A stretch of DNA of 64,000 nucleotides, taken from an uncultured bacterium (GTDB taxonomy: Bacteria > Patescibacteriota > Minisyncoccia > UBA6257 > 2-01-FULL-56-20). The notes beneath the pieces were generated by a model. It did not search any database and had not been told where the DNA came from. It was given only the letters and a program-made list of their open reading frames with translations. Shown one piece after another: positions 6,137 through 42,453 of the stretch. The position numbers and the translations under genes are program-made. The DNA lies in contig CAVOJZ010000002.1 of NCBI GenBank assembly GCA_963696395.1, positions 495,317-559,316 on the forward strand, given 5' to 3'. The number at the start of each line of letters is the position of its first letter. Position 1 is the first letter of the stretch.

Positions 6137-6232
6137 ACCCTATTTCGACGGCAATTGATCTTTGCGGGAAAAAAAGACAGCATTCTCAAGCGTTAGGGTT
6201 CTCAAAAAAATACATTCCCCAGCCTTACTTGT

Positions 6233-6244
6233 GAGCGGGTTAGT
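6233..6244 (+). repeat. att-like core repeat GAGCGGGTTAGT (copy 0), matching the 3' end of the tRNA-Gly-like gene read on the minus strand
   Basis: same core (AACCCGCTC on the minus strand) recurs at 10156, 11861, 12424 and at the tRNA-like 3' end 12895-12903. Confidence 0.5.
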
Positions 6245-6385
6245 AGATGCTATTAGAACCTTTACGAGGAATAGCCCAGCAATTTTGAATACGTTGAAAC
6301 AAATGAGCGCCTTTAACGATATATTAATATGAGGTTTGATATACTGATAACGACAGTACGGCTTGCGTCCTTGGAAAATTTCGTG

Positions 6386-6391
6386 TATAAT
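6386..6391 (+). promoter_or_regulatory. candidate -10 box (TATAAT) preceded by TG, 11 nt upstream of the hicB start
   Basis: perfect TATAAT hexamer at 6386-6391, TG at 6384-6385. Confidence 0.25.
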
Positions 6392-6402
6392 TTGCAAACC
6401 AA

Positions 6403-6728
6403 TGGCCAACTTAACTGAACAAGAAATTAAAGAGGTAAATAGGCTTCGCGGCTTATTCCCCTCGCAGATCAACGTTACTATCTCTCGTGTAGAAGATGGA
6501 ACTTTTTTGGCGCGCGTGGATACCTTTGAAGGGGCTCGCACCGAAGGAGATAATTTTTCTGAATTGATCGAAATGGTTAACGACGTAGTTAAAACCTATC
6601 TTGAAGTTCCTGAAAAGTTTCTTCCCTATATGCCTAATTACGTTCCCTCCATTGAACTGGCTCAAAAATTGAACGTCTTCCCGGTCGCTCTCGTAAAAGA
6701 AAACGTAATTCTTCCGATTGCTCGGTAG
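6403..6728 (+). CDS. hicB: HicB-like antitoxin (RNase H-like N-terminal HicB domain)
   Basis: motif ...VTISRVEDGTFLARVDTFEGARTEGDNFSELIEMVNDVVKTYLE resembles the HicB N-domain. Translationally coupled to the downstream HicA. Confidence 0.55.
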
Positions 6729-6955
6729 TGAAAGATTTATCCGTCAACACCGCGAATTGTTCGCATAAAGAATTAATTGCAATCGCACAAAAATGCGGCT
6801 TTGATTTATTCGAAGGCAATAAGCATACAAAAGTTAAGACTGCGGATGGAAAATTCGTGACCACAATTCCTCGTCACGAATCATTGAATAAACATACCGC
6901 AAAAGGCATTCTTCAGGATATGAATGCTCACGGGGCAACAATTAAGATTATCTGA
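6728..6955 (+). CDS. hicA: HicA-like mRNA interferase toxin (YcfA family)
   Basis: 75 aa. ...KELIAIAQKCGFDLFEGNKHTKVKTADGKFVTTIPRHESLNKHTAKGILQDM matches the HicA pattern (KHxK...G...TIP.H..L..GTL). GTG start overlaps the hicB stop by 1 nt. Confidence 0.65.
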   Translation: MKDLSVNTANCSHKELIAIAQKCGFDLFEGNKHTKVKTADGKFVTTIPRHESLNKHTAKGILQDMNAHGATIKII

Positions 6956-7021
6956 GTTTGAGGCCGCGCTTTCAGTTAAGGAATAAAAAAAGCGGTGAGC
7001 ATTTCTGCCCACCGCCGTTTG

Positions 7022-7456
7022 TTATCTTTCTCCTCGTTTCGTCTTCAGCTCGTCACGGGTCGTAGGGAGTCCTGCGGCTTCGAGAGCGTCTTTGATCGGA
7101 GTCTTGTCCTCGAAGAGCCATCCTTCCGTTGCTGCGAAAACCAAGTTGTATTCATCGAATCGGTCAAACTTCTTGGACCCTCCCGTCGGTTCGATGGTTA
7201 CAAATATCCGGATGCCTTCTTTCGAAGAGTAGAAATATTCAATGTCTGTGACCACCATGTCGATGTTCGGCTCCATCATGTTCAGGAAGACGAACTTTTC
7301 TCCGACGGAGGGGATCAAGTCTTCGGGCCAAGGAAGATAAAGGGTGGTAGGGGTGCTGTCGACATGTTTGTCAGCCACCGTTTTATAGTCCGCAGATACA
7401 TGCCAGGTGTCTTGATCAGAATCGAATTGCAAGAATGCCTTTCGTTGTACGGGCAT
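7022..7456 (-). CDS. hypothetical protein
   Basis: 144-aa ORF adjacent to IS elements, no recognisable motif. Confidence 0.35.
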   Translation of the reverse strand: MPVQRKAFLQFDSDQDTWHVSADYKTVADKHVDSTPTTLYLPWPEDLIPSVGEKFVFLNMMEPNIDMVVTDIEYFYSSKEGIRIFVTIEPTGGSKKFDRFDEYNLVFAATEGWLFEDKTPIKDALEAAGLPTTRDELKTKRGER

Positions 7457-7507
7457 TAACCCTCCTTTATCACATCAATAAATCTGTGCAGATTATACCC
7501 TCGAATA

Positions 7508-8447
7508 AAGTTCAATAGCTTGTAATCAGTTCGGCGATTTTTTCTTGCGGCGTTTTCATGTCGAGCCCCATGTGGGGCCGTTCGGTATTGTAGTAGTGGA
7601 GATATTCCGGCAGTTCCTTTTTCCACAATGAAAGGTCGCGGGGCACTCGCTTGATATATTCATCTTGGATCGTGCGGTTGAACCGCTCAAGGTGGGCATT
7701 GTCGTTCGGCGTGCGGATCCGCGAATGGCGATGGGAAAGGCCACGCGCCACGAGCTGCTTGGTGAACCATTTTGAAAACTCTGATCCGTGATCCGACTGG
7801 ATCGTTTGAAAGGCAAAGGGTGATGCAATCTGCCCGTATTGCACGAAGGAGAGGCTGCGATGGGTATTGATCCGCAAGGATGGGATCGCATATGCCCAGC
7901 GCGTGCAGACATCGATGAGCGTGTAGAGATACAGCTGGTTGCCCGAGGGACCCACATGCACGGTGTCGATTTCGACGAGCACACCTGGTTTTTCAGGCAG
8001 TGGTCGCGGCGGGTACGTGTGCCACTTCTTCCATTTCGAGGGATACGTGAGATGATAGCGCCGCAACGTCCGCTTGACCGATGAGAGGGAGACCGCAACG
8101 CCATCGCGCGTGAGCATCATATGGAGCACCTCAGCGCATCGATGATATTTTTCACGATATGCGAGGATGGCATCAACCACATCTTCTGAAAGTTCACGTG
8201 GATGATGATGTGGTTTTGATGACCGCGCGGGGATGATCCGCGCCATGCGGTTTGCAGGTGCCCGCTTCATCCATTGGACGATCGCCCCCTGGGAGAAGCC
8301 AAGATGCCGCGCGACCTTTCTCGTCGACCATCCTGACCGCACCAAACGCACTGCCTCCATGCGGACATGGGGCAACTGCTCGTTATTTGAATATGCCATA
8401 TCCATAGCTTGAATCACTCAGGGGTGATTACAAGCTATTGAACCATT
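7508..8447 (-). mobile_element. IS481-family-like insertion sequence (one rve-type transposase gene) with ~19-bp terminal inverted repeats
   Basis: gttcaatagcttgtaatca (7510-7528) is the reverse complement of tgattacaagctattgaac (8427-8445), bracketing the transposase ORF. Confidence 0.6.
7512..8417 (-). CDS. DDE transposase, integrase-core (rve) domain, IS481 family-like
   Basis: N-terminal HTH, DDE region DTVHVG...TLIDVCTRWAY...HSRIRTPNDNAHLERFNRTIQDEY. Confidence 0.75.
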   Translation of the reverse strand: MIQAMDMAYSNNEQLPHVRMEAVRLVRSGWSTRKVARHLGFSQGAIVQWMKRAPANRMARIIPARSSKPHHHPRELSEDVVDAILAYREKYHRCAEVLHMMLTRDGVAVSLSSVKRTLRRYHLTYPSKWKKWHTYPPRPLPEKPGVLVEIDTVHVGPSGNQLYLYTLIDVCTRWAYAIPSLRINTHRSLSFVQYGQIASPFAFQTIQSDHGSEFSKWFTKQLVARGLSHRHSRIRTPNDNAHLERFNRTIQDEYIKRVPRDLSLWKKELPEYLHYYNTERPHMGLDMKTPQEKIAELITSY

Positions 8448-8449
8448 AC

Positions 8450-9590
8450 CGCGAATTCAATCTTGAAATGCAACATCTCCGCGGGTGAGAATATCGGTAC
8501 GTCGAATACCAAAAACCCACATAACGGAGATGTCGCACTCGCATTTTACGCGCGACGACCGTGTCGCGCTAGCCCACCTGCTCTTGGTGGGCAAAACACA
8601 GTCATGGATCGCGGACCGGCTTGGCAAGAGTCCGGGTACAATCAGTCGGGAGATCAGGAGGAACCGTGATGATGACGGCGTATATCGCGGCGGCAGCGCC
8701 CATCACAAGACACAATACCGAAGGTTTGCTGCCAAAGAACCGTCGCAGAAATTGAAGCATGATCGAACGCTCCGCCGCCATGTCATGCGAAAACTCAAGC
8801 ACTATTGGTCGCCCGAACAGATCGCGGGACGTTTGCAGCGAATGACGAAACACACCGTCGTCTCCCATGAGACGATTTACCAGTTCGTATACCGCGACCG
8901 GTCGGACCTCAAAAAATATCTGCGGTATCAAAAGGGAAAGTGGCGCAGGAGGCGTGGCACGAACACGAGGAAAGCCAAGCGGAACGCATTGAAAATCAGG
9001 CGAATCGAAGAACGCCCACCGGTGGTTGAGGAGCGCAGGCGAATCGGCGACTGGGAAGGCGATACGATTCTTGACCGCACCAAAAAGCAACGGATGCTCA
9101 CCCACGTCGATCGGGCGAGTGGTTTTGGTGCGGCGGACAAAGTCGAAAAAGTCACTGCGGAGAACGTACATGCGATCACGCGCGATCGGTTCAAAAAGAT
9201 CCCGAAGAAAAAGCGGCACACCATGACACGTGACAACGGTCCTGAGTTCGGCGATTACGATCGTTTGCTTGAAAAAGATATTGATATTACCGTCTACCGC
9301 GCGACGCCCTATCACTCTTGGGAACGCGGATCGAATGAGAATTGGAACGGCCTGCTCCGGCAATTCTTTCCAAAAGGTATGGATTTTGCTATCGTGAAAC
9401 AATCCGATATCGACCGAGTCGTCCGACTGCTCAATGACCGTCCGAGAAAACGGCTCGGCTATCTCACTCCACGAGAGGTGTTCAATGGTCGTTGCGATTC
9501 AAACTAGAATTCAGGGTTGCAAAACACGTTAACCCTGACACAATTACCGAGGCGAAAGTTTCTCGGGTCGATAGGGAGTTTCTCTTGAAT
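8450..9590 (+). mobile_element. IS30-family element (boundaries approximate, inverted repeats not resolved)
   Basis: transposase gene 8530-9507. Only weak ATTCAA-containing candidate ends near 8455 and 9585. Confidence 0.35.
8530..9507 (+). CDS. IS30-family transposase
   Basis: HTH_38-like N-terminus (DRVALAHLLLVGKTQSWIADRLGKSPGTISREIRRN), GDWEGDTI and TRDNGPEF DDE motifs. Start taken at MSHSH (ATG 8530). Confidence 0.8.
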   Translation: MSHSHFTRDDRVALAHLLLVGKTQSWIADRLGKSPGTISREIRRNRDDDGVYRGGSAHHKTQYRRFAAKEPSQKLKHDRTLRRHVMRKLKHYWSPEQIAGRLQRMTKHTVVSHETIYQFVYRDRSDLKKYLRYQKGKWRRRRGTNTRKAKRNALKIRRIEERPPVVEERRRIGDWEGDTILDRTKKQRMLTHVDRASGFGAADKVEKVTAENVHAITRDRFKKIPKKKRHTMTRDNGPEFGDYDRLLEKDIDITVYRATPYHSWERGSNENWNGLLRQFFPKGMDFAIVKQSDIDRVVRLLNDRPRKRLGYLTPREVFNGRCDSN

Positions 9591-10061
9591 CGAGGTCCGG
9601 ATAAAGGAACGCGCTACGAAGGCGAGACGGTCAGCATCATCGCCGAACAATTGTTGATCCTTGACGGAAAGGGTGAGTCGCTCGCTTCTGTCGGAGGGTT
9701 CCGCATCGAAGTTATCGACAACCGAGCAAAAAAAGCTGCTGCGCCGCGGTGGAAAAGATTCTGGATGGATTCTGAAACAGAAAAATACGTACAGAACCCC
9801 CTTACCATCGAAGAAGCCCTTGAGGGCTTGCGGGAAAGAGGAGTTTTGGATCAAGCTGTGTTCGTCCTCTCGTTTATCAAAGATCTATACTACCTGTGGG
9901 ACGACCCCATTTGCAAAAGGATCGGACACCTTGTTCTCTATAAGCCTCCGAAAGATTTTACGCTTCCTGGCTGGCTTGAAGAAGAAGAACGGCGTGAGCG
10001 CGAGCAGATCCAGCAGACAATCGACACTATCGATGCAGAAGCGACGGCTCCTGTTAGCTGA
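9492..10061 (+). CDS. hypothetical protein (start uncertain, overlaps the IS30 transposase 3' end)
   Basis: 189-aa ORF followed by a terminator-like hairpin. Confidence 0.3.
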   Translation: MRFKLEFRVAKHVNPDTITEAKVSRVDREFLLNRGPDKGTRYEGETVSIIAEQLLILDGKGESLASVGGFRIEVIDNRAKKAAAPRWKRFWMDSETEKYVQNPLTIEEALEGLRERGVLDQAVFVLSFIKDLYYLWDDPICKRIGHLVLYKPPKDFTLPGWLEEEERREREQIQQTIDTIDAEATAPVS

Positions 10062-10127
10062 TCCTTGGATCAACGAACAACCCGGCGGGCGTAGAGCAAT
10101 CTATGTCCGCCTTTTTCTTTATTAAGA

Positions 10128-10164
10128 TCTCTCCACCGCATAGCCCTTGATTTCAGAGCGGGTT
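10128..10164 (+). repeat. att-like repeat copy 1 (tctccaccgcatagcccttgatttcaGAGCGGGTT). ~90% identical over 37 nt to copy 2
   Basis: near-identical 37-41-nt repeat at 11835-11875. Shares the core with 6233, 12424 and the tRNA-Gly-like 3' end. Confidence 0.6.
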
Positions 10165-10200
10165 GGTGGCGGGGTTTTAATGATCGAGAAATGTTGAGGA

Positions 10201-10233
10201 ATAAAAAGAGCCGCCCTCGTAAAGACGGGCGGC
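10201..10233 (-). terminator. rho-independent terminator for the minus-strand gene 10238-10867
   Basis: gccgccc...cgggcggc hairpin (10210-10233) followed on the minus strand by TCTTTTT. Confidence 0.55.
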
Positions 10234-10237
10234 ATTG

Positions 10238-10867
10238 CTATTTCGTAACGAGCCAGGCACGTGACCAGATACGGTAAACGCCATAGTACTCGTTTTCCAT
10301 CATGAAACCGAAAGCCAGCTCTTCGCGTTCGTAGTCGCCATCTCCTCCAAAGAGGCCGTAAAGGCCTCTGTTATTGAAGCACGATGTGCCCCAGCGCTTC
10401 ATTTCCGATTCGATGAAAGCATGGAATGCTTCGAGGATGGTGACTTGCTGTTCAGGATATCGTTCGTACTCACTTTCTGTTATGGCTCCGAACATATGGC
10501 GCAAGCCGAACCTTTTTACGATCCGCATCTGGACAAGATAGCCGTCTTCACCGGGCGACGGGGACTCGGCGGTAAAAATAGCATAGCGTTTCTCGTCAGT
10601 TGTTACTTCGAGCAATCGAAGCAGGGCGTCGAAATCTGCTTTGGCGATCCTATTGCCAAAATAAATCGTACCACCACTTGCTTCCTGTGGCGGCGCACTC
10701 TTGAACGGATCTTTTCCGAAACGGTCTTGATAACCGTAAACTCCGCTACCGTACGGTGCACATTGAGAGAGATCGCCGGGTTGAACTTCGAGCGTGCAGT
10801 TAGGCCAGATCGGAGGCGATACACTGACCCGATCGCCAAGATTGAATACGAGTCGTGTTGGTGGCAT
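10238..10867 (-). CDS. hypothetical protein (cassette gene)
   Basis: 209-aa ORF, no recognisable domain. Confidence 0.4.
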   Translation of the reverse strand: MPPTRLVFNLGDRVSVSPPIWPNCTLEVQPGDLSQCAPYGSGVYGYQDRFGKDPFKSAPPQEASGGTIYFGNRIAKADFDALLRLLEVTTDEKRYAIFTAESPSPGEDGYLVQMRIVKRFGLRHMFGAITESEYERYPEQQVTILEAFHAFIESEMKRWGTSCFNNRGLYGLFGGDGDYEREELAFGFMMENEYYGVYRIWSRAWLVTK

Positions 10868-10997
10868 ACATTCTCCTTACAAAGAGCGATATTCCAATCG
10901 TTTCTACGCCGCAATTATATCCTTTGACAATCGCTCCGTCAAGAAATACAATATCGGCAGCTATCACGAGATAAAAAATGTATAAACAGGAGCGGCT

Positions 10998-11780
10998 ATG
11001 GAGAAAGCAGCAAACAAGGCAATCGGACTTCTCGTCGGCCTCTACCGCCGAATCGCAGATCTCACACAAAAGGACTTAGCAAAGCATTCGGGAGTCGATG
11101 TGAGCAAGATCGCAATGGTTGAATCAGGATTGCGCGCACTAGGGACGGATCGTCATGCTCTAGCTGAGGCGCTCAAGATATCCGCTCTTGGCAAAGAAGA
11201 ACTCGATGTTTTAGCGAATGGATGGTTCGGTATCCCTCAGGCTGATTTTCTGACCCCTGAAGATGTTTTGACCGGAACGCCATTGTTCGTGAGAGGTTTG
11301 TCAGAAGAATTTTCCAATCAGCGGACCAATTTCGATGCCGTTTGGATCGTGACTTCGGGCGATCTCTTGCGTAACCCAGCACTTCAGTCGTTCATTGAGC
11401 AGCGGGTTAAAAAGACGCGGTTTGTATTTTTCATCGCGTCGGATTCCTTATCTCTCGACAGCATTATACTGTTGAGGAATCGGATCATCAAAGAATGCCG
11501 CGTTTCAAAAAAGTGCCTGGATCAGAACCTTCTTTTAATAAAAGTTCCTCCGGCAGTATGTTTACAGGACATGGTGATCTATGACCCGGGCAAAAGCTGT
11601 TGTATGTTTGGACGGATCATCATACGCCTTCAGTTTCCGTGCGGAACATTCGCCATGGATCCATCGCAGCTGATCAGAGTTTATAACGCATTTGGACTTA
11701 TCCTCATGCAGGTCGAGACGAGACCCGGAGTCCATGTCGAGACTTCAGCTGGAGGGTCTATGTTATTGCCCTCTGCGTAG
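10998..11780 (+). CDS. XRE-family HTH protein with an uncharacterised C-terminal domain
   Basis: HTH_XRE-like segment LTQKDLAKHSGVDVSKIAMVESG near the N-terminus. Confidence 0.45.
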   Translation: MEKAANKAIGLLVGLYRRIADLTQKDLAKHSGVDVSKIAMVESGLRALGTDRHALAEALKISALGKEELDVLANGWFGIPQADFLTPEDVLTGTPLFVRGLSEEFSNQRTNFDAVWIVTSGDLLRNPALQSFIEQRVKKTRFVFFIASDSLSLDSIILLRNRIIKECRVSKKCLDQNLLLIKVPPAVCLQDMVIYDPGKSCCMFGRIIIRLQFPCGTFAMDPSQLIRVYNAFGLILMQVETRPGVHVETSAGGSMLLPSA

Positions 11781-11834
11781 CTTTATCGGTTTGGCCGCGA
11801 CAGAAATGTCGTGGCCTTTTATTTATCTAAAATT

Positions 11835-11875
11835 TCTCCACCGTATAGCCCTTGATTTCTGAGCGGGTTAGTCAA
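11835..11875 (+). repeat. att-like repeat copy 2 (tctccaccgtatagcccttgatttctGAGCGGGTTagtcaa)
   Basis: see copy 1. The 3' part (GAGCGGGTTAGTCAA) is shared with copy 3. Confidence 0.6.
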
Positions 11876-11948
11876 CGACGTTCGTACCTGTTTTCTTTTG
11901 GAAAGAGCTAGGAAATTCAGCATTCCCAATTTTGCGTAGTGGACAATG

Positions 11949-12371
11949 CTAGAACTCCGATGTCACTGTTCCCGTCATCTTATCAACGGTGTACCAATTA
12001 AACGTGGCGTCATGATCGGACATGCTTTCGTACGCGTGCACCACATACGTACTTGTCGTTTCTGAATCAATTTCGATTACCGGAACACCGCCGGTCTTGG
12101 GACTTGTTTCGTTCGGGCCAGTGAATTGTGCCATCCACTGCTTAACGTCAGGCAGATTATTTACAAGGGCGATGGCTTCGCTTGTGCTATTAACCGGAGT
12201 TGCGAATGCCGTACTCGAGACGTTACTGCTTATAGGTGTTGGTGCAACGCTTAGAAGATTTTGCGACGATGGTTGGGTTTGGGTTGTCACATAATACCAA
12301 ACTCCACCTGCAACTAATGCCGCTAATACGATAATTCCGACACCGACCAAAAAAGGAATCTCCCTCTTCAT
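11949..12371 (-). CDS. membrane-anchored secreted hypothetical protein
   Basis: N-terminal TM/signal anchor, Ser/Thr-rich linker. Confidence 0.4.
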   Translation of the reverse strand: MKREIPFLVGVGIIVLAALVAGGVWYYVTTQTQPSSQNLLSVAPTPISSNVSSTAFATPVNSTSEAIALVNNLPDVKQWMAQFTGPNETSPKTGGVPVIEIDSETTSTYVVHAYESMSDHDATFNWYTVDKMTGTVTSEF

Positions 12372-12423
12372 AATTCAAGTTTAACACAATAGTGATTCCC
12401 GCCACCGAAATAGGAAGTCACTG

Positions 12424-12438
12424 GAGCGGGTTAGTCAA
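12424..12438 (+). repeat. att-like repeat copy 3 (GAGCGGGTTAGTCAA), followed by tandem gatgtccgga x2
   Basis: 15-nt identity with copy 2. Confidence 0.5.
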
Positions 12439-12474
12439 TGATGTCCGGAGATGTCCGGACCTATGGGAGAAAAA

Positions 12475-12864
12475 CTAGTTCACGCTGTTTATCGTCTTTT
12501 CCATCACGTCAATTGCTTCCCCGACAGTAATAGAATATACCCCAGCGCTACCTTTTTTAAAAGCATCGCACCACATTTCATATTCTTCAGCAAAATCAGG
12601 CAACGGAACATTTTCCTGTAACATTGCAATTACACTTCTTGAAATAGCCTCTTCTGAGAAAGGTGCGTGTTGAATGATTTTAGTAATTCCTTCGGGCGCA
12701 TTTTTATTTAAAACTCGTAATCCCTGAATCGCAACATGAACAATATTCCCAAGCTTTTCACGGGAATCAACCTTAAGAATCGTAAGCGTAGAATTTTCCT
12801 CGTTAAGTCGAGCTTTATAACTCCAGATTTGACCAGCTGCGTAAATACTCTTTTTGTCAATCAC
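12475..12864 (-). CDS. hypothetical protein (cassette gene)
   Basis: 129-aa ORF. Confidence 0.4.
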   Translation of the reverse strand: MIDKKSIYAAGQIWSYKARLNEENSTLTILKVDSREKLGNIVHVAIQGLRVLNKNAPEGITKIIQHAPFSEEAISRSVIAMLQENVPLPDFAEEYEMWCDAFKKGSAGVYSITVGEAIDVMEKTINSVN

Positions 12865-12896
12865 TCTTAAAGTTTAACAAAATGAAGTGTCGCTGA

Positions 12897-12966
12897 GCGG
12901 GTAAGGGGAGTCGGACCCCTGTCAACAGGTTGGAAACCTGTGGTAATGCCGTTATACGATACCCGC
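12897..12966 (-). tRNA. tRNA-Gly(TCC)-like, possibly functional with an atypical T-loop TCCGACT, or a degenerate att-site tRNA
   Basis: Minus-strand cloverleaf: acceptor GCGGGTA/TACCCGC, anticodon stem ACAGG/CCTGT with loop TTTCCAA (anticodon UCC), T-stem AGGGG/CCCCT, discriminator U. A C at T-loop position 55 is also seen in the tRNA-His of this window. Confidence 0.5.
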
Positions 12967-14223: not shown

Positions 14224-16098
14224 TTAAGCCGAAATGGGCTTAATCTTGAAAGGCTTCAGAATATCCACAAATTCGTCTTGTTCGATGGTTTCCTTCTGTA
14301 TAAGAGTATCCGCAATCTTCTTGAGTGCGACTCTGTGCCCCTTGAGGATTTTTTCGGCGATTTGGTAGGCGTGGTCAATAAAACCCCTGACTTCTTTGTC
14401 GATCTCCGCCGCGACATGTTCGGAGTAGTCCCGTTCCGAAGAAATTTCCCGTCCAAGGAAGATCATGTCTTCGGTCTTGCCAAAGGTCATCGGGCCGAGA
14501 TTGCTCATGCCGTATTTTGTGACGAGCCGGCGTGCAAGGTCGGATGCCTGTTTGAGGTCGTTCGATGCGCCGGTTGATACGTCGCCAAATATCAATTTTT
14601 CGGAGGCGTAGCCGCCCATCATCATGGCAAGATCGGCGAGGAACTGCTGTTTGGTTTTGAGATGCTGATCTTCGGTGGGAAGTTTCATGGTGTACCCGCC
14701 GGCAAATCCACGGCTGATAATCGAAATTTTTTGTACTGGATCGGCGTCTTTCACGCCAACCGCAACGAGCGCATGTCCGCCCTCATGATATGCGGTGATT
14801 TCTTTCTCGCGCGGCGAGATGACGCGGCTGCGTCGCTCGGGGCCGAGGATCACTTTTTCCGCGGCGTCTAAAAATTCCTGCTGGCCGATGATCTTTTTAT
14901 TGAGGCGCGCGGCGCTGATGGCGGCTTCGTTCATGAGGTTTGCGAGGTCGGCCCCCGAGAAGCCCGGAGTGCGGATCGCAACCCGCCGCAAGTCAACATT
15001 CTTTTCAAGCAGTTTTCCTTCGGCGTGGATTTTCAGAATAGCCTCACGGTCGTTCAGATCCGGTAAATCAAGGATGACACGGCGGTCAAAACGACCGGGC
15101 CGGAGGAGTGCCGGATCGAGAATGTCCGGACGGTTCGTTGCCGCGAGTACGATAACGCGGGTGTCGCGGTCGAAACCGTCCATTTCAACAAGGATTTGAT
15201 TGAGCGTTTGTTCGCGCTCGTCATTGCCTCCGCCGAGACCCGCGCCGCGCTGGCGACCAACGGCATCAATTTCGTCGATAAAGAGGATGGCGGGCGACGC
15301 GCGCTTTGCCGTCGTGAAGGCGTCGCGTGTTCGTGAAGCACCGACGCCGACGAACATCTCAACAAACTCGGATGCGGATATATAGAAGAAGGGGACGTTG
15401 CTTTCTCCGGCGACAGCCCGTGCAACAAGCGTCTTGCCGGTACCCGGAGGGCCCATGAGGAGTATGCCTCGCGGGATTCTAGCGCCGAGGTCAAGAAACT
15501 TTTTAGGATTTTTTAAGAAATCCACGACCTCGATGAGTTCCTCTTTCGCTTCTTTGAGCCCGGCAACGTCCCGGAACATCACTTTATCTTTAAAGGTCGA
15601 CAACCGGAGATTCGAGCGGCCGAAATTAAATGCCTGATTAACGCCGCTTCGCGCCTGGCGGAACATGAACCAGAAAAAAATGCCGATCGCAATCAACGAG
15701 AGGAGCGTCGGTGCAAGGATGCCCGCCCAGTATTCCCATCCTGATTGGTTTTGCACCTCCAGATCGACGGCCTGCAAACTGCTCGACGGCACGCCGTAAT
15801 TTGCGAGCGTCTGCGTGATGCCAAGTTCGGTTTCTTTTTGCGACTGCGCAGCCGTACCGTCTTTGTAAGTAATGGCGAGCTGATCCCCGTTCACAATAAT
15901 TTGCTTCACGGTACCGGCGTCGATCTTGTCGGCGAGCTGGCTCAGACTGATTTGCTGTGGCTGGGTTTGAGGACTTACAAAAAATGAAAAAATCAGCGAC
16001 AGCACGATGAGTGTGACGACGGCCCAGATAATATTTTTAGTTAAGTTGGACATATGGTTTGAAGTTATTATTTTATAAAAAATAGCGCGGGCGGTCAA
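14224..16098 (-). CDS. ftsH: ATP-dependent zinc metalloprotease FtsH
   Basis: Walker [10 protein letters not shown], second region of homology, zinc-binding HEGGHA, N-terminal TM segments. Confidence 0.9.
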
Positions 16099-21745: not shown

Positions 21746-22039
21746 GCCGCGGTAGCTCAGTGGCAGAGCGCAGCCCTAAAATCTTTGGGGCCTTTCACAG
21801 TAATGTGAATTGAATAACCGGGTGAACTCGGGGAAAACTTTATCCAGAAAAATTATGGATAAAACAATCCCGAGCCAAGCTTCGCAGGGGTTTACGTTGC
21901 GAAGAAGGTGTAGAGACTAGCGAGTGAGTCCCAACAATAATCTCGCACAAGCGCCCGGCTTCCTGAAAAGGAAGATGATATAGTCCAAATTCAGCTTCGG
22001 AAGAGGCTGGCGTCGAGTGTTCGATTCACTCCCGCGGCA
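21746..22039 (+). tRNA. tRNA-Phe (anticodon GAA) interrupted by a group I intron between positions 33 and 34
   Basis: exons 21746-21777 and 22000-22039 form a canonical cloverleaf: GCCGCGG acceptor, anticodon stem CAGCC/GGCTG, spliced loop CU|GAAGA, T-arm GAGTG-TTCGATT-CACTC, discriminator A. Confidence 0.7.
21778..21999 (+). ncRNA. group I self-splicing intron (222 nt) in the tRNA anticodon loop
   Basis: P1: exon CCCU pairs with IGS GGGG (21788-21791). P10: 3' exon GAAGA pairs with TCTTT just 5' of the IGS. R element AGAGACTA (21912-21919) and S element GATATAGTCC (21976-21985) form P7. Terminal G (omegaG) at 21999. Confidence 0.7.
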
Positions 22040-22050
22040 CACTGAAAAAA

Positions 22051-34654: not shown

Positions 34655-37600
34655 ATGGCAGTATCCTCGAAGCAATTAGTTCTTGCCGAGGGGCAGACAA
34701 AACAACCACTCTCCACAAAGAGCTCCTTCAAGCCGAGCAAACAACAGAAGAAATCCCTCTATATATTGATCGCCCTTGGGCTTGTCTGTTTTGGGGTGCA
34801 GGCGAAGCAGGCACATGCGGCGATTTCATTGGTGGCCACGAGTAGCGCAACGGCAGGCGGGAGTAGTGTTACCACCCCCGCAATCAACACGACAGGCGCT
34901 TCTCTCATTGTCGTGGTGGGTTCCACTAATGCAGGTACGTCAACCGTATCTGATAACAAAAGCAATACTTGGCATGTGTTATCTACCTGGGCGGGAGGTA
35001 ATAATGATATACAAATATTCTACGCATATACCCCTACTACGAGCTCTACCCAGACTTTCACGATCACCAGTGTCGGTTCGGGTAACTATCCGAGTTTAGT
35101 AGTGTCTGCATGGTCGGGGACGCTCGCCACCTCAGCGGTGTTCGACACCCAGAACGGTTCTAGCACCACAAATAGTGTTACCTCTTTCGGTACCGGCTCC
35201 ATAACCCCCGCGTCGATGGGAGAACTCCTCATCGGGGGTTTGGGCATGGGTCCCTGCACAGCACCGACGAACATATCCCTAAGTCCGGGATTCTCCATTC
35301 TCGGTTCGAACGGCGTTACCGGATGCCAGGGGGAAGCAGTGTCATCCGCCTATCTCATCGATTCGAGTACGAACGCTATCGGGCCACAATGGTCGTGGTC
35401 ACCCATTGTGGGCGGCGTGGTCACGGACATCGCGGCGTTTGAATCGGCAGTTCCCAGCATTTCTTCATTCTCTGCATCTCCCTCCGCTATTGGCTCTGGC
35501 GCTTCATCCACTCTTTCGTGGAACGTCACGAATGCCTCCTCCGTCGCCATTACTCCCGGCAGCTTCTCCACCTCTACCCTCATTGCTTCTACCACGGTGA
35601 GTCCCACCTCCACCACAATCTATACCCTCACTGCCACGAACGCCAATGGCACAAGCACTGCAACAACAACCGTCACGGTGGACAACACCACCCCCACGAC
35701 CCCTACGAGCGTCGTTGCCACCGCGTTCTCGGGATCACAGATCAATCTCACCTGGGCCAGCTCCACGGATAGTGGGGGATCGGGTATTGCTGGCTACAAT
35801 ATCTTCAGGTGCACGGGTGGAGCTTGTACCCCGAATACAAGGGTTGCGACCTCATCCGGTGCTTTATACAGCGACACCGGTCTCAGTGCCTCGACTACTT
35901 ATACGTATGCTATCCAGGCATATAACGGGGTGGGTACCGTTTCCGCAACCTCCACCACGGCGAGCGCAACGACCTTGCCCCCAAACACCATCGATGCGGC
36001 TTCATGCAGTGAGAGTGCTGTGCAGACGGCGATCAGTAACGCTTCGTCTGGCTATACCGTCGTTATCCCATCGGGTACCTGCACGTGGACAAGCGAATTA
36101 TCGATCACGACGCCCATTACGCTCACAGGAACTGGCACGCCGAATTCAGGATCAGGAACGACCGGCGCGGCGACCCCATCAACCATCATCATAGATAACG
36201 GAGGTTCCAGTAACCCGTTGATGCTATTTGAGCCAAGTTATGGTAGTCCTGATGTGCGCCTTTCGATGTTGGCTATCGATCCGTACAGTACTTCTACTGC
36301 ACTTACTGACCCGATATGGATTGAAGGCGCATGTGCCGCCGGGGGATGCCCATACGTACGAATCGACAATCTTACATTCGGATTGAACACCTATTGGTCC
36401 GAAGGTGGCAACGGTTCAAATGCTGAGGCAGGAATTCTCGCGGAAAACGTGTTTGGCGTTGTTGACCATAACACAATCGGGAGCATAGCAACGCCAGCCA
36501 ACAACTTCGAATTGTTTAACGCTCAGCTGGGATCGTACCTCGGGATAGGGCAGTACGGGGATAACTCATGGGTACAGCCGGACTCGTTTGGCGGAGCCAA
36601 TAACCTATACGCGGAGAACAACCTGGACTACGACGCGGGCTATTTGCCGATGACCGACGCCGAGCAGGATTCTGAGTTCGCGATCCGTGGCGGGAGTCGC
36701 GTGGTTGCGCGGGACAACGTTTTACACCAAGGTTCCGGGAATACGGGCGGCTACGGACTATTTCAGGATCATGGCACCGATTCGGGGGGGAGGGCGCGCG
36801 GATCACGCGAAGCTGAAGTTTACGACAATTTCATTTATTGTGATGGAACCACTACAAACTGCTCAGGCGTAGATGGCGCATTGCGCAGCGGGACGGGACT
36901 GTTCTTTGGCAATAGCTTTACATCTGCGTTAGGCTCGGGGCCATGGGTTAGCCTAGCGCTTTATCGCAACGACACGGCGTCATGGAGTCCTTTTTCTCCG
37001 AACTGCGGCGGCTTTGATCCATGGGACAATAACGACAACGCCAGCGTTAGCTCAGTCTATACCATTACCTCCACAAGCACGGGCGCGATCAACGATACCA
37101 GTGCCGGATGGACTGCGGGCCAGTTTGCCCCCGTCGCTGGATCGAACGCATACCTCTTCTATGATGTGACCGCTTCAGCGAATCCGGTCGTAGCCGCGAT
37201 CACCGGAAACACGGCCACACAGCTATCATTGGGAGCTTTTACAGGCGGCACGCCGTCTCCCGGTGACACCTTTGTGATCGTCGGGAGTCATCTTTACTAT
37301 GCGGGCACGGTCACTGCTGTCTCTGGCACTGGCGGGACAGGAAACACCGGAATGACTAACAGCGCCGCCAATTTCGGAAGTACAAACTCCCTGATTCCGT
37401 CTGGTGCGCCATATTCAGTGTTTGATGCCACTGGGGGGTGGGGCGGTGAGATCTCCGGTAATACCTCGACTACTATTACAGTGCAGGGTTACATTGGTTA
37501 TGGCCCGTATGGATTCTCGGTCAGCGACACGTATTGGGTAACCCGTGCGACCGTATGTATCGATCAGCCAACGCGCGGGCAGCAGACCAGTTCCATGCTC

Positions 37601-40525
37601 TCGGGTCTGCCTATCTCACCGATTGGCGTGGTTACGGAATCTATTGACCCTGTCTACCAGTGGGACGACACCACGACAGAAGCAAGCACCAACGGAAATA
37701 TTACATCCGGGTCGCTGCGACTTATTGCTAATAGAGACTACTATGCACAAGCGGGCGGTATTCAGACCACCTCCACGAGCCCGTTCAATGGGACAAGCGG
37801 AACGGGATGGGGAATATTCGCCGACCGCCCCATGACCTGCACCGCGAATCCTGAGGGAGGAGGATCCGCTGGAGTAGGATATTTCGCCACCGATGCGGAC
37901 AATGGCAATGGCATACTGTATACCTGCAACGCTACGAACACTTGGGTTGCCCACTATCAGCCAGCCCCGTATCCATATGCCCTAACCGCCTCTGGCCTCC
38001 CTAACGACCCCACGCTCACCACGACCAGTACTCTCGCGAACGAGGGCTCGATCTCTCAGTTCCCCACGGGGCAGAACTTTATCGCAGGCACAAACGTCAC
38101 TTTGACCGCGAATGCCTCTTCCGGCTATGTTTTCTCTGGCTGGACTGGCAGCGTCACTACGAGCACCAATCCTCTGGCTGTCACCGTCAACAGCAACATG
38201 ACACTTGCCGCGAATTTCACCTCGCAAGCTAGTTCCACCCCCGCCATCACCTCCTTCTCCGCCGCTCCCTCTGAAGTTCTCTCCACAGGAACATCAACCC
38301 TTTCCTGGAACATCTCCAACGCCTCTTCCGTCGCCGTCACCCCAGGAAGCTTCTCGACATCCACCCTCATTGCATCGACCACGGTAAACCCTACCTCAAC
38401 AACCTTGTATACCCTGACGGCTACCAATGGAAACGGAACCAGTACCGCGACAACGACCGTGACCGTGGATATAGTCACGCCCACAACGCCGGCCTCAGTC
38501 GTCGCGACTGCTACCGGCACCTCTACGATTTCCCTTACCTGGGCCTCATCGACTGACGGTAGCGGACCTGGTCTTGCAGGTTACAACATTTTCAGATGTG
38601 CCGGCTCTTGCACGCCTTCCACAAGCATCGCCACATCTTCAGGAGCTTCGTACAACGACTCAGGTCTCACGGCCTCCACCACATATACTTATGCGGTTTC
38701 CGCCTATGACACCCTGGGACTCACTTCGGCGACATCAACGAATGCCTCTGCGACAACTCCAAGCGCCGCGCTGCCTTCCATCTCCTCCTTCTCGTTCTCC
38801 TCCTCTTCTATAACCCTCGGCTCATCATCTCTCCTGTCGTGGAATGTGAGTAATGCCTCATCGGTCGCACTCTCTGGCAACAATCTCAGCTTCTCAACCA
38901 GTACCGCCTCAAGCTCAGTCTCCGTCACTCCGGACGCCACGGGCACCTTCGTCTACACGCTTTCTGCCTCAAATACGAACGGGACCTCGACTGCGACCAC
39001 AAGCATCATGGTAGCTGCGGAGAATACCACCTCTTCTCCTCCCCAAAACCTTTCTGCCACTCCGAGTAACGCCTCAGTCTCTCTCTCTTGGGATACCCCC
39101 TCATCCAACGGGGGATCAGCGCTCACGGAATACCTCGTCTATGACCGTTTCACCGGATCGAGTACCTTTGCCTTTTATTCGACGACCTCTCCCTCGGTGA
39201 CGACCTCAACCGTATCTTCCCTCACGAACGGCCAGAGCTATGACTTCGAGATCATTGCCCAAAATGGAGTAGGGACCTCAACCCCTTCCAATATCGTCTC
39301 GTCAACGCCGTATACGATTCCCAACCCTCCCACCTCAGTCTCTGCCACCGCAGGCAATGCAGAGGCAACCGTCTCTTTCTCAGCTCCCACCTCAACCGGA
39401 GGCTCTCCGATCCTCTATTACACCGCCACGAGTAATCCTGGCAGCATCTCCGCCTCTTCAACGGCAGCTCCCATCTCCGTTCAGAACCTCACGAACGGGC
39501 AGAGCTATACCTTCACCGTCACGGCAACAAATGCCGCAGGAACCAGCGCATCTTCCTCTCCCTCAAATAGCGTCACCCCCACGAGTTCCGCCCCCCTGAT
39601 CGCTTCCTTCTCGGCGTCTCCTCTCTACACCCAACCTGACATCACAAGCACCCTCTCCTGGAGTGTCAGTAACGCTTCCTCCGTCACGATCACCCCAGGG
39701 AATTTCAGCACAAGCACCCTTGCGGGAGCCTGGGACGTGAATCCCACGAGCACGACCACGTATATCCTCACGGCTTTATCCAACGGCAATGGCACCTCCA
39801 CCGCAGAGACGACAATCACTGTCCAAAGCACCCCTCCGAGCGTCCCCACTGGTCTATCGGCAAACGCAGTATCCGTTTCCGAGATTGATCTCTCCTGGAC
39901 TGCATCCACCAGCACCATCCCCATTGCAGGCTATGACGTCTACCAGGACAGCACAAAGATCGCGACCACGAGCGCTACCTCCTACCAAAGCACTGGCCTT
40001 TCCCCCAATACCACTTACAGCTATACCGTGGATGCCTTTGATGCCGCTGGCAACGTATCGGGAGAGAGTTCCAGTACTTCAGCGACGACCCAAGTCCAGC
40101 AATCTGGAAGTGGCGGAGGCGGAGGAGGAGGTGGAGGTGGTTGCTACTACAACTGCAGCTATGGAGGTTCTTCTTCCACAAGCACACCCTCAAGCACAGG
40201 ATCAGGAAGCTCATCTTCTCTCCTCGCAACCCTTCTCGCAGAACTGGAAGCCCTGATCAAAGCAATGAATACCCAATTAGTCACGTCTTTCACACGAAAC
40301 CTCACCATTGGATCACGAGGAACCGATGTCCAAAACCTCCAGATCTTCCTGAATGACAATGGATACCCGATCGCAAGCTCAGGAGCAGGATCAATCGGCA
40401 AAGAATCCACCTACTTTGGCGCAAAGACACAAGAAGCCTTGGCCAAGTGGCAGAAGGCTAATCATCTTCCTGCTACCGGATTCTTTGGAGGACTGACGCG
40501 GGGGGAGATGGAGAAGCTGTACTAG
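34655..40525 (+). CDS. giant (1956 aa) cell-surface protein: N-terminal TM anchor, multiple fibronectin-III-like/Ig-like repeats, beta-helix-like central region, poly-Gly tract, C-terminal peptidoglycan-binding (PG_binding_1) domain
   Basis: repeated ~110-aa modules ending ...LTWASSTD.SG.G.AGYNIFRC. C-terminal LTIGSRGTDVQNLQIFLNDNGY...FGAKTQEALAKWQKANHLPATGFFGGLT matches PG_binding_1. Confidence 0.6.
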   Translation: MAVSSKQLVLAEGQTKQPLSTKSSFKPSKQQKKSLYILIALGLVCFGVQAKQAHAAISLVATSSATAGGSSVTTPAINTTGASLIVVVGSTNAGTSTVSDNKSNTWHVLSTWAGGNNDIQIFYAYTPTTSSTQTFTITSVGSGNYPSLVVSAWSGTLATSAVFDTQNGSSTTNSVTSFGTGSITPASMGELLIGGLGMGPCTAPTNISLSPGFSILGSNGVTGCQGEAVSSAYLIDSSTNAIGPQWSWSPIVGGVVTDIAAFESAVPSISSFSASPSAIGSGASSTLSWNVTNASSVAITPGSFSTSTLIASTTVSPTSTTIYTLTATNANGTSTATTTVTVDNTTPTTPTSVVATAFSGSQINLTWASSTDSGGSGIAGYNIFRCTGGACTPNTRVATSSGALYSDTGLSASTTYTYAIQAYNGVGTVSATSTTASATTLPPNTIDAASCSESAVQTAISNASSGYTVVIPSGTCTWTSELSITTPITLTGTGTPNSGSGTTGAATPSTIIIDNGGSSNPLMLFEPSYGSPDVRLSMLAIDPYSTSTALTDPIWIEGACAAGGCPYVRIDNLTFGLNTYWSEGGNGSNAEAGILAENVFGVVDHNTIGSIATPANNFELFNAQLGSYLGIGQYGDNSWVQPDSFGGANNLYAENNLDYDAGYLPMTDAEQDSEFAIRGGSRVVARDNVLHQGSGNTGGYGLFQDHGTDSGGRARGSREAEVYDNFIYCDGTTTNCSGVDGALRSGTGLFFGNSFTSALGSGPWVSLALYRNDTASWSPFSPNCGGFDPWDNNDNASVSSVYTITSTSTGAINDTSAGWTAGQFAPVAGSNAYLFYDVTASANPVVAAITGNTATQLSLGAFTGGTPSPGDTFVIVGSHLYYAGTVTAVSGTGGTGNTGMTNSAANFGSTNSLIPSGAPYSVFDATGGWGGEISGNTSTTITVQGYIGYGPYGFSVSDTYWVTRATVCIDQPTRGQQTSSMLSGLPISPIGVVTESIDPVYQWDDTTTEASTNGNITSGSLRLIANRDYYAQAGGIQTTSTSPFNGTSGTGWGIFADRPMTCTANPEGGGSAGVGYFATDADNGNGILYTCNATNTWVAHYQPAPYPYALTASGLPNDPTLTTTSTLANEGSISQFPTGQNFIAGTNVTLTANASSGYVFSGWTGSVTTSTNPLAVTVNSNMTLAANFTSQASSTPAITSFSAAPSEVLSTGTSTLSWNISNASSVAVTPGSFSTSTLIASTTVNPTSTTLYTLTATNGNGTSTATTTVTVDIVTPTTPASVVATATGTSTISLTWASSTDGSGPGLAGYNIFRCAGSCTPSTSIATSSGASYNDSGLTASTTYTYAVSAYDTLGLTSATSTNASATTPSAALPSISSFSFSSSSITLGSSSLLSWNVSNASSVALSGNNLSFSTSTASSSVSVTPDATGTFVYTLSASNTNGTSTATTSIMVAAENTTSSPPQNLSATPSNASVSLSWDTPSSNGGSALTEYLVYDRFTGSSTFAFYSTTSPSVTTSTVSSLTNGQSYDFEIIAQNGVGTSTPSNIVSSTPYTIPNPPTSVSATAGNAEATVSFSAPTSTGGSPILYYTATSNPGSISASSTAAPISVQNLTNGQSYTFTVTATNAAGTSASSSPSNSVTPTSSAPLIASFSASPLYTQPDITSTLSWSVSNASSVTITPGNFSTSTLAGAWDVNPTSTTTYILTALSNGNGTSTAETTITVQSTPPSVPTGLSANAVSVSEIDLSWTASTSTIPIAGYDVYQDSTKIATTSATSYQSTGLSPNTTYSYTVDAFDAAGNVSGESSSTSATTQVQQSGSGGGGGGGGGGCYYNCSYGGSSSTSTPSSTGSGSSSSLLATLLAELEALIKAMNTQLVTSFTRNLTIGSRGTDVQNLQIFLNDNGYPIASSGAGSIGKESTYFGAKTQEALAKWQKANHLPATGFFGGLTRGEMEKLY
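35455..35816 (+). repeat. intragenic repeat copy A (~360 bp), near-identical at the protein level to copy B
   Basis: SISSFSASPSAIGS...GYNIFRC versus AITSFSAAPSEVLS...GYNIFRC. Confidence 0.6.
38241..38600 (+). repeat. intragenic repeat copy B
   Basis: see copy A. Further diverged copies near 38770 and 39600. Confidence 0.6.
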
Positions 40526-42097: not shown

Positions 42098-42186
42098 GTT
42101 ACCAGTATACCGCGATCTGTCGTAAAAGGGGGAGCCAAGGCGCACGGGCTTGCGCTTTTCGTCTAAGCGCGTTATAATAGGTTGTA

Positions 42187-42453
42187 ATGTTAACCAAGCG
42201 AGTAAAAGCCCGCATAATCGGGGAAAGTGCAAAGCACGATAAGGACACCGGCTCAGCCGGCGTTCAAATTTCGGTTGTTTCACGCCAGATCGATGAGTTG
42301 GCTTCTCACCTCAAGAAAAATCCAAAAGACAATCATTCGCGTCGTGGTCTTTTAAAAATGGTTTCCAAGCGGCGCAAACTTTTGGCATACATGAAGAAGA
42401 AAGAAGGGTCTGCATACGAAAAGTTGATTAAAAAGTTGGATCTCAAGCGTTAG
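42187..42453 (+). CDS. rpsO: 30S ribosomal protein S15
   Basis: 88 aa. DTGSAGVQISVVSRQIDELASHLKKNPKDNHSRRGLLKMVSKRRKLLAY matches the S15 signature. Confidence 0.85.
   Translation: MLTKRVKARIIGESAKHDKDTGSAGVQISVVSRQIDELASHLKKNPKDNHSRRGLLKMVSKRRKLLAYMKKKEGSAYEKLIKKLDLKR

Follow-up and report, generated by a model that had tools for sequence, protein, structure and literature searches.

How does a row of small gene cassettes come to be stacked behind a tRNA gene when none of them encodes a recombinase? The question is raised by an array at positions 6233–12966 of a 64-kb stretch of DNA from an uncultured bacterium of the Patescibacteriota (Minisyncoccia, UBA6257; assembly GCA_963696395.1, contig CAVOJZ010000002.1, positions 495,317 to 559,316), referred to here as the window. 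Every cassette of the array is bounded by copies of a short core which matches the 3' end of a tRNA-Gly gene, and every one lacks a recombinase; the two insertion sequence (IS) transposases encoded within it belong to secondary insertions. The array is probably a tandem stack of elements of a large serine recombinase (LSR) family which have lost their integrase genes and have partly decayed. A sequence-only reading of the window had proposed serial integration at the tRNA with loss of the recombinase, and this central point is borne out by the repeats, by the arms that flank them, and by LSR-encoding relatives.

ARAGORN called a tRNA-Gly(tcc) at 12895–12966 on the minus strand, and the Rfam tRNA model (RF00005) matched 12896–12966 of the same strand with 55.9 bits, compared to a gathering score of 29, so that the gene previously described as tRNA-Gly(UCC)-like can be regarded as a proper tRNA gene. 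The 8-mer GAGCGGGT is complementary to the 3' acceptor strand of this tRNA, its discriminator, and one additional nucleotide. Exactly five copies are present in the 64 kb (6233, 10156, 11861, 12424, and 12895), all of them on the plus strand. Adjacent copies have extended flanks in common: the segments 10109–10167 and 11814–11872 share 59 nt at 83% identity, and the 25-mer TCTCCACCGYATAGCCCTTGATTTC is confined, within the window, to these two flanks; the cores at 11861 and 12424 have the common flank GAGCGGGTTAGTCAAYGAYGT of about 20 nt, and a common flank of 12 nt, GAGCGGGTTAGT, accompanies the core at 6233. Comparison of the repeats hence confirmed the four additional, identically oriented core copies and their pairwise extended flanks. 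The description of the core as a repeat of the tRNA 3' end holds in so far as it is present five times, but the exact repetition is limited to 7–8 nt from the tRNA and the next nucleotide (12 of 13 nt in the best copy).

A repeat of this length might be due to chance, or might be a generic dispersed element (a repetitive extragenic palindrome or a terminator) in an otherwise ordinary stretch of chromosome. The exact repeat is only 8 nt long, the chance expectation for GAGCGGGT is 1.98 copies in the whole window on both strands, and five out of 100 shuffles gave five matches somewhere in the window. However, the five copies occur on one strand and within 6.7 kb, which is far from chance, roughly (0.05)^4 by our own estimate, and the window contains no copy elsewhere. 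A 13-mer around the core, searched with up to two mismatches, gave a single extra site outside the array (22059), which is unrelated. Moreover, each non-tRNA copy abuts an arm known from tRNA 3' ends in other genomes, and the content of the region between tRNA-Gly and tyrS varies among relatives. A chance or dispersed repeat, to which we assign next to no probability, is refuted by these observations.

The FtsH protein encoded in the window shows 62–86% sequence identity to FtsH of metagenome-assembled genomes (MAGs) of Paceibacterota/Minisyncoccia, and a set of 80 FtsH-anchored loci from species-representative genomes was used for comparison. The order FtsH, tRNA-Ile, 198-aa membrane protein, tRNA-Gly is kept in about 30 relatives. 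Beyond tRNA-Gly, the conserved neighbour is tyrS, which is convergent with the tRNA; the gap between both genes measures 17, 82, 352, 943 and up to 3979 bp (17 relatives), and the open reading frames (ORFs) within it are unrelated across genomes. Variable content, which had been predicted for this locus, is indeed observed, and the oriented repeats together with the variable occupancy support the notion of tandem foreign islets at the tRNA 3' end. In the source genome, tyrS lies beyond the start of the window, and genes coding for a histidine kinase, a response regulator, trigger factor, and other proteins are located between tyrS and the array. Because the ancestral neighbour of tRNA-Gly is tyrS in the relatives, the histidine kinase gene does not have the status of a conserved boundary, and its designation as the conserved end of the array has to be dropped.

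The same core, with conserved arms, was found 3' of tRNA-Gly in eight of the related loci (L007, L008, L016, L018, L019, L021, L022, and L023), where the extra CCCGCTC copies lie on the same strand and each is preceded by ..AAAAGGTTCTAACGTCATCYACTAR. A scan of metagenome contigs for the arm pattern revealed 14 more loci, among them L121, in which tRNA-Gly has five cassettes behind it. The same arms also flank cassettes behind tRNA-His, and the core there is that tRNA's own 3' end, AGGCACCC. The R arm, i.e., the conserved sequence before each core, comprises 91 nt, a length that is constant in 13 of 14 diverse copies. Antisense to the tRNA it contains a 28-codon ORF (SGLVDDVRTFFGENASKFAIPDLMGEKC) with a conserved stop, the frame of which continues through the core. 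Since variation is highest at third codon positions (3.69, as compared to 2.92 at first and 2.23 at second positions), and since the R arm at 11869–11939 contains, relative to the consensus, 3 additional nt that keep the frame and a change of the Arg codon AGA to CGT, the R arm appears to be under coding constraint. The L arm follows each core, extends over up to ~125 nt, and starts with ATTTTCAAGGGCTATGCGGTGGAGAGATTTT (type A) or with a second variant; a module with the pattern TTTTGTTCGACCG..ATCC..TTACCC..GGATGATGGTAGAAC is located further in.

Three other interpretations of the conserved flanks were considered and rejected. A decayed tRNA or tRNA-like RNA in the R arm is not supported by Rfam, which at E ≤ 10 matched only the real tRNA in the L121 array. 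A promoter (TTGACT .. TATACG) in the shared flank has the wrong spacing. Guide covariation of the L-arm module with the core, in the manner of IS110 bridge RNAs, does not occur, because the same ACCCCTAA/ACACCCTAA segment is present in L arms of the Gly type and of the His type.

Some of the related loci showed additional features. Directly after tRNA-Gly, L121 contains an element of ~190 bp (143–350) which mostly consists of a near-perfect hairpin of ~90 nt and is bounded by 18-nt direct repeats of the tRNA 3' end (GACTCCCCTTACCCGCTC); it differs in kind from the cassettes and represents a second type of insertion at this tRNA. L018 has a similar hairpin behind its tRNA-Gly. In L016, a tRNA-Gln(UUG) gene (15555–15629) lies inside the variable region downstream of tRNA-Gly, and may be cargo of an inserted element. 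L031 contains three R-arm-like motifs (AAACAGGTTCTGACATCGTGGA..) within 2 kb, at 3691, 5077, and 5805; their cores are neither of the Gly nor of the His type (AAGGTATCC, AAGATCCCC), and no tRNA was detected in the 12-kb locus. It may hold an array that uses a different target or has become separated from its tRNA.

Arms in the window were located by nhmmer, using a model of the R arm derived solely from other genomes (15 arms) and a separate type-A L-arm model. The R-arm model matched at exactly four core-adjacent sites, each against one non-tRNA core (Table 1). In the R arm of cassette 1, an internal deletion and a tandem duplication of TCCGGACATC are observed, and the plus-strand ORF gives SGLVNDVRRCPDLWEKN before its stop. 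Cassette 2 has an R arm with the plus-strand ORF SGLVNDVRTCFLLERARKFSIPNFA, likewise terminated by a stop. The R arm of cassette 3 has lost its DDVRT part and kept its distal end (..LMIEKC and the stop, plus GGAATAAAA), and that of cassette 4, nearly full-length, carries a 1-nt deletion, so that the plus strand reads SGLVDAIRTF and then runs out of frame. Across core 5, the plus strand reads ..VLKKIHSPALLV, then SG, then LVDAIRTF, and positions 30–58 of a hidden Markov model (HMM) of LSR tails span this junction with a weak E value of 0.022. A type-B L-arm model gave no nhmmer match in the window, including the junction on the kinase side. The arm copies of the window are decayed, the L arms being cut to ~30 nt and the R arms showing a frameshift, internal deletions, and a small duplication.

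Given that arms of 90–125 nt occur at the boundaries throughout the family, with ~80–85% identity between genomes, cassettes might now be exchanged by homologous recombination after DNA uptake, using the arms and the tRNA as anchors, without any site-specific step. Two arms in L016 are identical to each other though the cargo differs, as such an exchange would produce; competence-type uptake genes are common in bacteria of the Candidate Phyla Radiation (CPR), and the "minimal mobile elements" of Neisseria provide a model for homology-anchored exchange. However, this process cannot make the first junction at a core of 7–8 nt, and it leaves unexplained why the same arms occur with a different core at tRNA-His. 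The arms in the window are, besides, too short (about 30–70 nt) and too decayed for efficient homology. Whatever the origin of the cassettes, homologous exchange without a site-specific step is improbable as the explanation of the array; it is compatible with integration by an LSR and may contribute to present-day turnover.

The link of the arms to an LSR was found via the R-arm ORF. Among 5.8 billion proteins, the exact Gly-type tail of the R arm occurred only in products of 43 and 45 aa. The gene of the 43-aa product is located on contig L127. Behind tRNA-Gly, this contig has a 965-bp cassette bearing L and R arms of the typical form, then a core, and directly beyond this core, on the opposite strand to the tRNA, a serine recombinase gene from which a large internal part has been deleted. 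What is left of the gene codes for the Resolvase N-terminus (E 8.5e-17) and a C-terminal part; it shares its reading frame with the R-arm ORF, from which a single TAG separates it. Using the recombinase fragments of L127 as probes, intact LSR relatives were found. L021 (8260–9888) encodes a 542-aa LSR which reads antisense into tRNA-His and contains the domains Resolvase, Recombinase, and Zn_ribbon_recom (E 5e-19, 3e-12, and 5e-7, respectively), and L035 (12521–14101) a 526-aa LSR with these domains, which reads antisense into tRNA-Ile, directly beside FtsH, with methyltransferase/restriction-like cargo behind it. In L021, L035, and L127 the LSR gene lies at the attL edge of the element, antisense to the target, and its 3' end overlaps the att site; what the window retains are L-arm stubs of ~30 nt and R-arm tails.

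At E ≤ 1e-20, the LSR family has more than 3500 members. Of the 120 closest homologues, 21 end in ..IYSQNPxLLRxLDDVRTC(L/I)M.., the motif of the R-arm ORF, and at least 35 in translated antisense tRNA (..GDSNP.., ..DLNP..). Fifty-two of the 120 stop 25–26 residues past a conserved LEP motif; therefore, the breakpoint is fixed within the protein. A tandem in L129 consists of tRNA-His, an 8.7-kb element without a called integrase, and an element with an integrase, which reads across the junction into the R arm of its neighbour. With the LSR-tail HMM, R arms fall into the expected columns, and alignments also extend across the junctions in L023 and at 6233 of the window; the E values on these short segments are weak (8e-5 to 0.04). 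As to the L arm, the GTTCGA of its module corresponds to codons of an R(L/F)EP motif, and in a shifted frame type-A L arms encode ..NKNILEQIYS.., matching ..NKRTLAEIYS.. of the integrases. From these sequence comparisons we conclude that the R arm is the severed last ~28 codons of an LSR gene, that the L arm is a stub of its 3' end, and that cassettes without an integrase are deletion derivatives. The absence of an integrase from the array, noted in the sequence-only reading, was corroborated by the Pfam scan and by the LSR search of the window. That reading had left the choice between a recombinase acting in trans, a lost recombinase, and an unrecognised mechanism; a lost recombinase is now favoured. 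An unrecognised mechanism need not be invoked, as the flanks can be recognised as fragments of an LSR gene.

The cassettes might also have been assembled in trans by a tyrosine recombinase (the XerC/D homologue encoded at 41210–42283 or a lost phage-type integrase), in the fashion of integrative mobile elements exploiting Xer (IMEX) or of classical islands at tRNA genes (tDNA islands). Most tDNA islands use tyrosine integrases (PMC4383910), and the Xer homologue is, as reported earlier, the only gene of the tyrosine or serine integrase type in the window. We nevertheless consider this route very unlikely, because the arms derive from the gene of a serine recombinase. The Xer protein has orthologues with 59–75% identity in relatives, none of them at an array, and tblastn with Xer did not reveal any array-associated recombinase; it is a housekeeping Xer, and the idea that it might act on the array in trans was not supported. 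Considering the top 25 Pfam families of each scan of 164 ORFs from 44 arrays or flanks, neither Phage_integrase nor any other recombinase family was present. No dif-like site was identified, though without a rigorous test for one, and the target is a tRNA 3' end.

Integron-like clusters of attC sites lacking integron integrases (CALIN), composed of promoterless cassettes with folded attC-type sites which are moved by an integron integrase, resemble the array in their small cassettes of one or two genes, in the lack of a recombinase, and in the conserved element at one end. Here, however, this element is an ORF homologous to the LSR tail instead of an imperfect hairpin with RYYYAAC/GTTRRRY boxes, genes within the cassettes are in mixed orientation, and neither IntI nor another tyrosine recombinase was found near the arrays (±10 kb, about 45 loci). 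An integron origin is hardly credible.

In the mechanism that we propose, an LSR of the phage-integrase/CcrB type would recombine the attachment site of an element (attP) with the last base pairs of tRNA-Gly(UCC). The attP would be situated inside the 3' end of the LSR gene, and this gene would occupy the edge of the element next to the tRNA, in antisense orientation to it. Because the LSR reading frame would span the crossover point, integration would sever the last ~28 codons, and the severed tail together with a second ACCCGCTC would mark the far end of the element as its R arm. The remaining LSR gene would abut the tRNA and end a few codons into antisense tRNA, and the tRNA would remain complete, since an identical ACCCGCTC is brought in by the element. 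Further insertions at this tRNA would stack elements head to tail, with junctions composed of R arm, core, and L arm as in L121, L016, and the window. Deletion of the LSR gene would then leave an L-arm stub of ~30 nt, the R-arm tail, and the cargo. Cassette 4 has in addition been invaded by the IS30-like and IS481-like elements. Comparison of junctions places the putative crossover within or next to CCCGCTC, the exact dinucleotide being conjectural. Each of the four cassettes of the window would have arrived by LSR integration, in an order that is likewise conjectural; the resulting junctions would not differ between attL and attR as the insertion site.

Several observations weigh against this mechanism. 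The exactly repeated portion of the tRNA is only 7–8 nt long, the 64-kb window contains neither an LSR gene nor a sizeable LSR fragment, cassette 1 lacks a recognisable L arm, and the other L arms in the window comprise just ~30 nt. The link to the LSR is a chain, in which the R arms of the window resemble those of the family, the latter are in frame with an LSR remnant, and their motif is shared with LSR tails; the matches of the short tails to proteins are weak when taken alone (best E in the window 0.039), and the exact Gly-type tail was not found in any of the 5.8 billion proteins above a length of 45 aa. Neither an excised or circular form nor an attP was found in IMG/VR, where three specific arm/attP patterns gave no match, and a loose 17-mer gave 28 matches, none in arm context, as compared to ~56 expected by chance (our own estimate, assuming ~60 Gb). 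Furthermore, canonical serine integrases recombine attP with attB only, not with attL or attR; stacking would therefore imply a relaxed specificity, as in Ccr recombinases.

A more speculative idea, which we regard as rather unlikely, is that the position of attP within the 3' end of the LSR gene acts as a built-in switch. The free or circular form and the distal member of a tandem would carry the conserved tail of ~28 residues (..L-x-DDVRT-C/F.. then ..IPDL..), and integration beside the tRNA would swap this tail for a few codons of antisense tRNA. The two isoforms might differ in activity or directionality, replacing a separate recombination directionality factor, and leftover R arms, as in the window array, could re-arm the integrase of an incoming element. 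If so, the tRNA-Gly and tRNA-His arrays of Patescibacteria would be a self-regulating platform for cassette capture and not a graveyard.

The cores partition the array into four cassettes of 463, 555, 1697, and 3915 bp. Their gene content, listed in Table 1, was recovered by ORF and Pfam scans as previously described, including the IS481-like and IS30 elements of cassette 4, which were confirmed by rve_3/rve and HTH_38 matches. As regards the HicAB pair assigned to this cassette, HicA is just above the cutoff (HicA_toxin, 28.0 bits versus 27), but the HicB-like partner has no Pfam match. Pfam matches were also lacking for the proteins of 129, 140, and 209 aa, and the 260-aa protein gave weak HTH_31/HTH_3 matches below the cutoff. 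The 129-aa protein has a single homologue (47% identity), encoded in a nuo operon of an unrelated bacterium, a context which is uninformative with respect to mobility. When searched against 95 related loci, the cassette proteins had no homologues, save a weak 28% match of the 189-aa ORF. The inverted repeats of the IS481-like element are located at 7510–7528 and 8425–8443, and enclose a transposase ORF (7512–8417). The element is apparently intact and lies directly beside the IS30-like element. Logan assemblies of run ERR11563597 break at both, which suggests several genomic copies.

Table 1. Coordinates of the tRNA gene, core copies, arm relics, and cassette genes in the window
Feature	Position	Strand	Evidence or remark
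tRNA-Gly(UCC), intact attachment-site gene	12896–12966	-	ARAGORN and Rfam; 3' end faces array
Core copy 1 (ACCCGCTC on tRNA strand)	12895–12902	-	3' acceptor strand, discriminator, and 1 further nt
Cassette 1	12432–12894		between cores 1 and 2
Cassette 1 cargo, 129-aa orphan protein	12475–12864	-	ORF; no Pfam or PADLOC match
R-arm relic, cassette 1	12432–12473	-	nhmmer 12424–12473, E 0.017; motif scan
Core copy 2	12424–12431	-	exact 8-mer
Cassette 2	11869–12423		between cores 2 and 3
Cassette 2 cargo, 140-aa protein, N-terminal membrane or signal segment	11949–12371	-	ORF
R-arm relic, cassette 2, best preserved	11869–11939	-	nhmmer 11861–11933, E 2.2e-9; top window match of LSR-tail HMM, E 0.039
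Core copy 3	11861–11868	-	exact 8-mer
L-arm relic, type A, first ~30 nt, tRNA-proximal end of cassette 3	11828–11860	-	nhmmer 11828–11855, E 3.3e-4
Cassette 3 cargo, 260-aa protein, weak N-terminal XRE-type HTH	10998–11780	+	HTH_31 E 1.2e-4, below cutoff
Cassette 3 cargo, 209-aa hypothetical protein	10238–10867	-	ORF
R-arm relic, cassette 3 ("R2")	10164–10204	-	nhmmer 10175–10204, E 0.0037, model positions 2–31
Core copy 4	10156–10163	-	exact 8-mer
L-arm relic, type A, first ~30 nt, tRNA-proximal end of cassette 4	10123–10155	-	nhmmer 10123–10150, E 5.1e-6
Cassette 4 cargo, hypothetical protein of up to 189 aa	9492–10061	+	ORF
IS30-like transposase, secondary insertion in cassette 4	8485–9507	+	HTH_38 E 7e-11; rve below cutoff
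IS481-like element, perfect 19-bp terminal inverted repeats	7510–8443	-	rve_3 E 3e-15, rve E 1.7e-11
Cassette 4 cargo, 144-aa hypothetical protein	7022–7456	-	ORF
Cassette 4 cargo, HicA toxin (6728–6955) after possible HicB-like partner (6363–6728)	6363–6955	+	Pfam
R-arm relic, cassette 4	6241–6331	-	nhmmer 6233–6287, E 9.6e-8
Core copy 5, distal array end	6233–6240	-	exact 8-mer
Possible 3'-end relic of the recombinase gene of a fifth element	6180–6232	-	between kinase start codon and core 5; inference

The suggestion that the cassettes carry defence genes was not supported for the window: PADLOC yielded two weak matches only (HTH_VI, E 2.5e-4; Cmr5, E 0.007), neither of which indicates a defence system, and the one homologue of the 129-aa protein belongs to a nuo operon. 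Larger members of the family carry cargo resembling restriction-modification systems (L127, 281–3569; L035, 14329–17086; L129, 634–2657 and 13297–16079), the types observed being an N6/N4 methyltransferase with a ResIII helicase, a fused methyltransferase/endonuclease-like pair, and Dcm with MutH. In the relatives, the element family does move defence-type genes, whereas the window cassettes show none.

Two features of the window outside the array may be mentioned. A tRNA-Phe(GAA) gene at 21746–22041 is split by a group I intron into exons at 21746–21777 and 22000–22041; the joined tRNA is accepted by ARAGORN. The intron (222 nt, 21778–21999; Rfam Intron_gpI, 70.1 bits) is inserted in the anticodon loop between U33 and G34, and the same tRNA-Phe gene is uninterrupted in the relative L002. 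The region 34655–40525 codes for a secreted or anchored protein of 1956 aa, which is rich in Ser/Thr and contains repeated fibronectin-III-like segments; it is a giant surface protein of the kind common in CPR episymbionts.

Mobile elements of Patescibacteria (CPR) are poorly charted, and genomes of ~0.9 Mb leave little room for accessory DNA. Our search of the literature on integrons or tRNA islands in Patescibacteria found nothing specific. Strain-specific genes beside tRNA-Gly, tRNA-His, and tRNA-Ile in Paceibacterota may largely come from one family of serine-integrase elements and its derivatives without integrase, and the 91-nt R arm and the L arm of ~125 nt are simple markers to delimit such islets in fragmented MAGs. 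The integrases of the family are compact, numerous, and have a fixed breakpoint, and several appear to target tRNA 3' ends, which may make them of interest in the mining of integrases for genome engineering. The C-terminal tail split off by integration offers a testable hypothesis of directionality control. As to the window itself, its cassettes are relics, their genes are orphans, and nothing points to a new recombination mechanism.

Among known systems, the closest are the ssrA islands of Dehalococcoides, which are arranged in tandem downstream of a structured-RNA gene and bounded by repeats of its 3' end (McMurdie et al. 2011, PMC3146451). A CcrB-like integrase (DsiB) is encoded there at attL on the opposite strand, and the 3' end of its gene always overlaps attL, running into the RNA gene or into the neighbouring island; 15 islands without an integration module were read as cis-mobilizable or fixed (PMC3146451). 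The layout of the family described here seems to match these islands almost point for point. The target differs, being tmRNA in Dehalococcoides but tRNA-Gly here, and tRNA-His or tRNA-Ile in relatives, as does the length of the exact repeat (20 bp versus 7–8 nt). The second small recombinase and the six-gene integration module have no counterpart here, the cassettes of 0.46–3.9 kb are far smaller than its islands, and the host here is a CPR bacterium. The overlapping part of the integrase was regarded as non-functional and divergent by the authors of the Dehalococcoides study (PMC3146451). In contrast, the severed tail is conserved in the present family, with its DDVRT motif and a fixed length of 28 codons, suggesting that it matters for the enzyme.

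Composites of the staphylococcal cassette chromosome (SCC) and pseudo-SCC elements (CcrAB/CcrC) resemble the window array in their serial stacking and in their recombinase-less members. The target of SCC is a protein gene, rlmH/orfX, the ccr genes are internal and not split by integration, and the elements comprise 20–60 kb, whereas in the present family the LSR gene is split by integration, the target is a tRNA, and the units are far smaller. Serial insertion at the 3' end of one gene, short boundary repeats, and the stacking of recombinase-less members with complete ones are well known for SCC (also summarised in PMC3146451). Tandem tDNA islands and tycheposons likewise show partial tRNA copies between islands, newcomers pushing older elements outward, and scattered degenerate remnants (PMC4383910; Hackl et al., 10.1101/2020.12.28.424599). 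The tycheposons of Prochlorococcus and the islands recognised by Islander involve tyrosine recombinases and duplicate tens of nt of the tRNA, whereas a serine recombinase and the last 7–8 nt appear to be involved here. Of the features by which Islander recognises islands, the window shows an intact tRNA, displaced direct repeats of the tRNA 3' end, albeit short ones, at the far boundary of each islet, and variable occupancy, but no internal integrase.

Cis-mobilizable elements (CIMEs) are flanked by att sites, lack recombination and transfer genes, and occur in tandem with, or derive from, complete elements (PMC5704250; PMC3146451). The window cassettes, bounded by cores and devoid of a recombinase, appear comparable to CIMEs or to pseudo-SCC; their att flanks are eroded and the window contains no complete partner element. 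With their sites in this state, the cassettes are probably fixed by now, and could at best be moved by a related LSR in trans. An attP inside the recombinase ORF is also known from integrases of the type of Sulfolobus spindle-shaped viruses (SSV), where integration into a tRNA gene splits the recombinase gene to both ends of the element and excision restores it. Integrases of the SSV type belong to the tyrosine recombinases, and their gene is inactivated by the split, which takes away a large N-terminal part; in the present family, only the last ~28 codons of a serine recombinase would be removed. An integration hotspot with a lost recombinase is thus of a known kind, and the conserved LSR tail which is split off by integration is the one unusual feature of the system.

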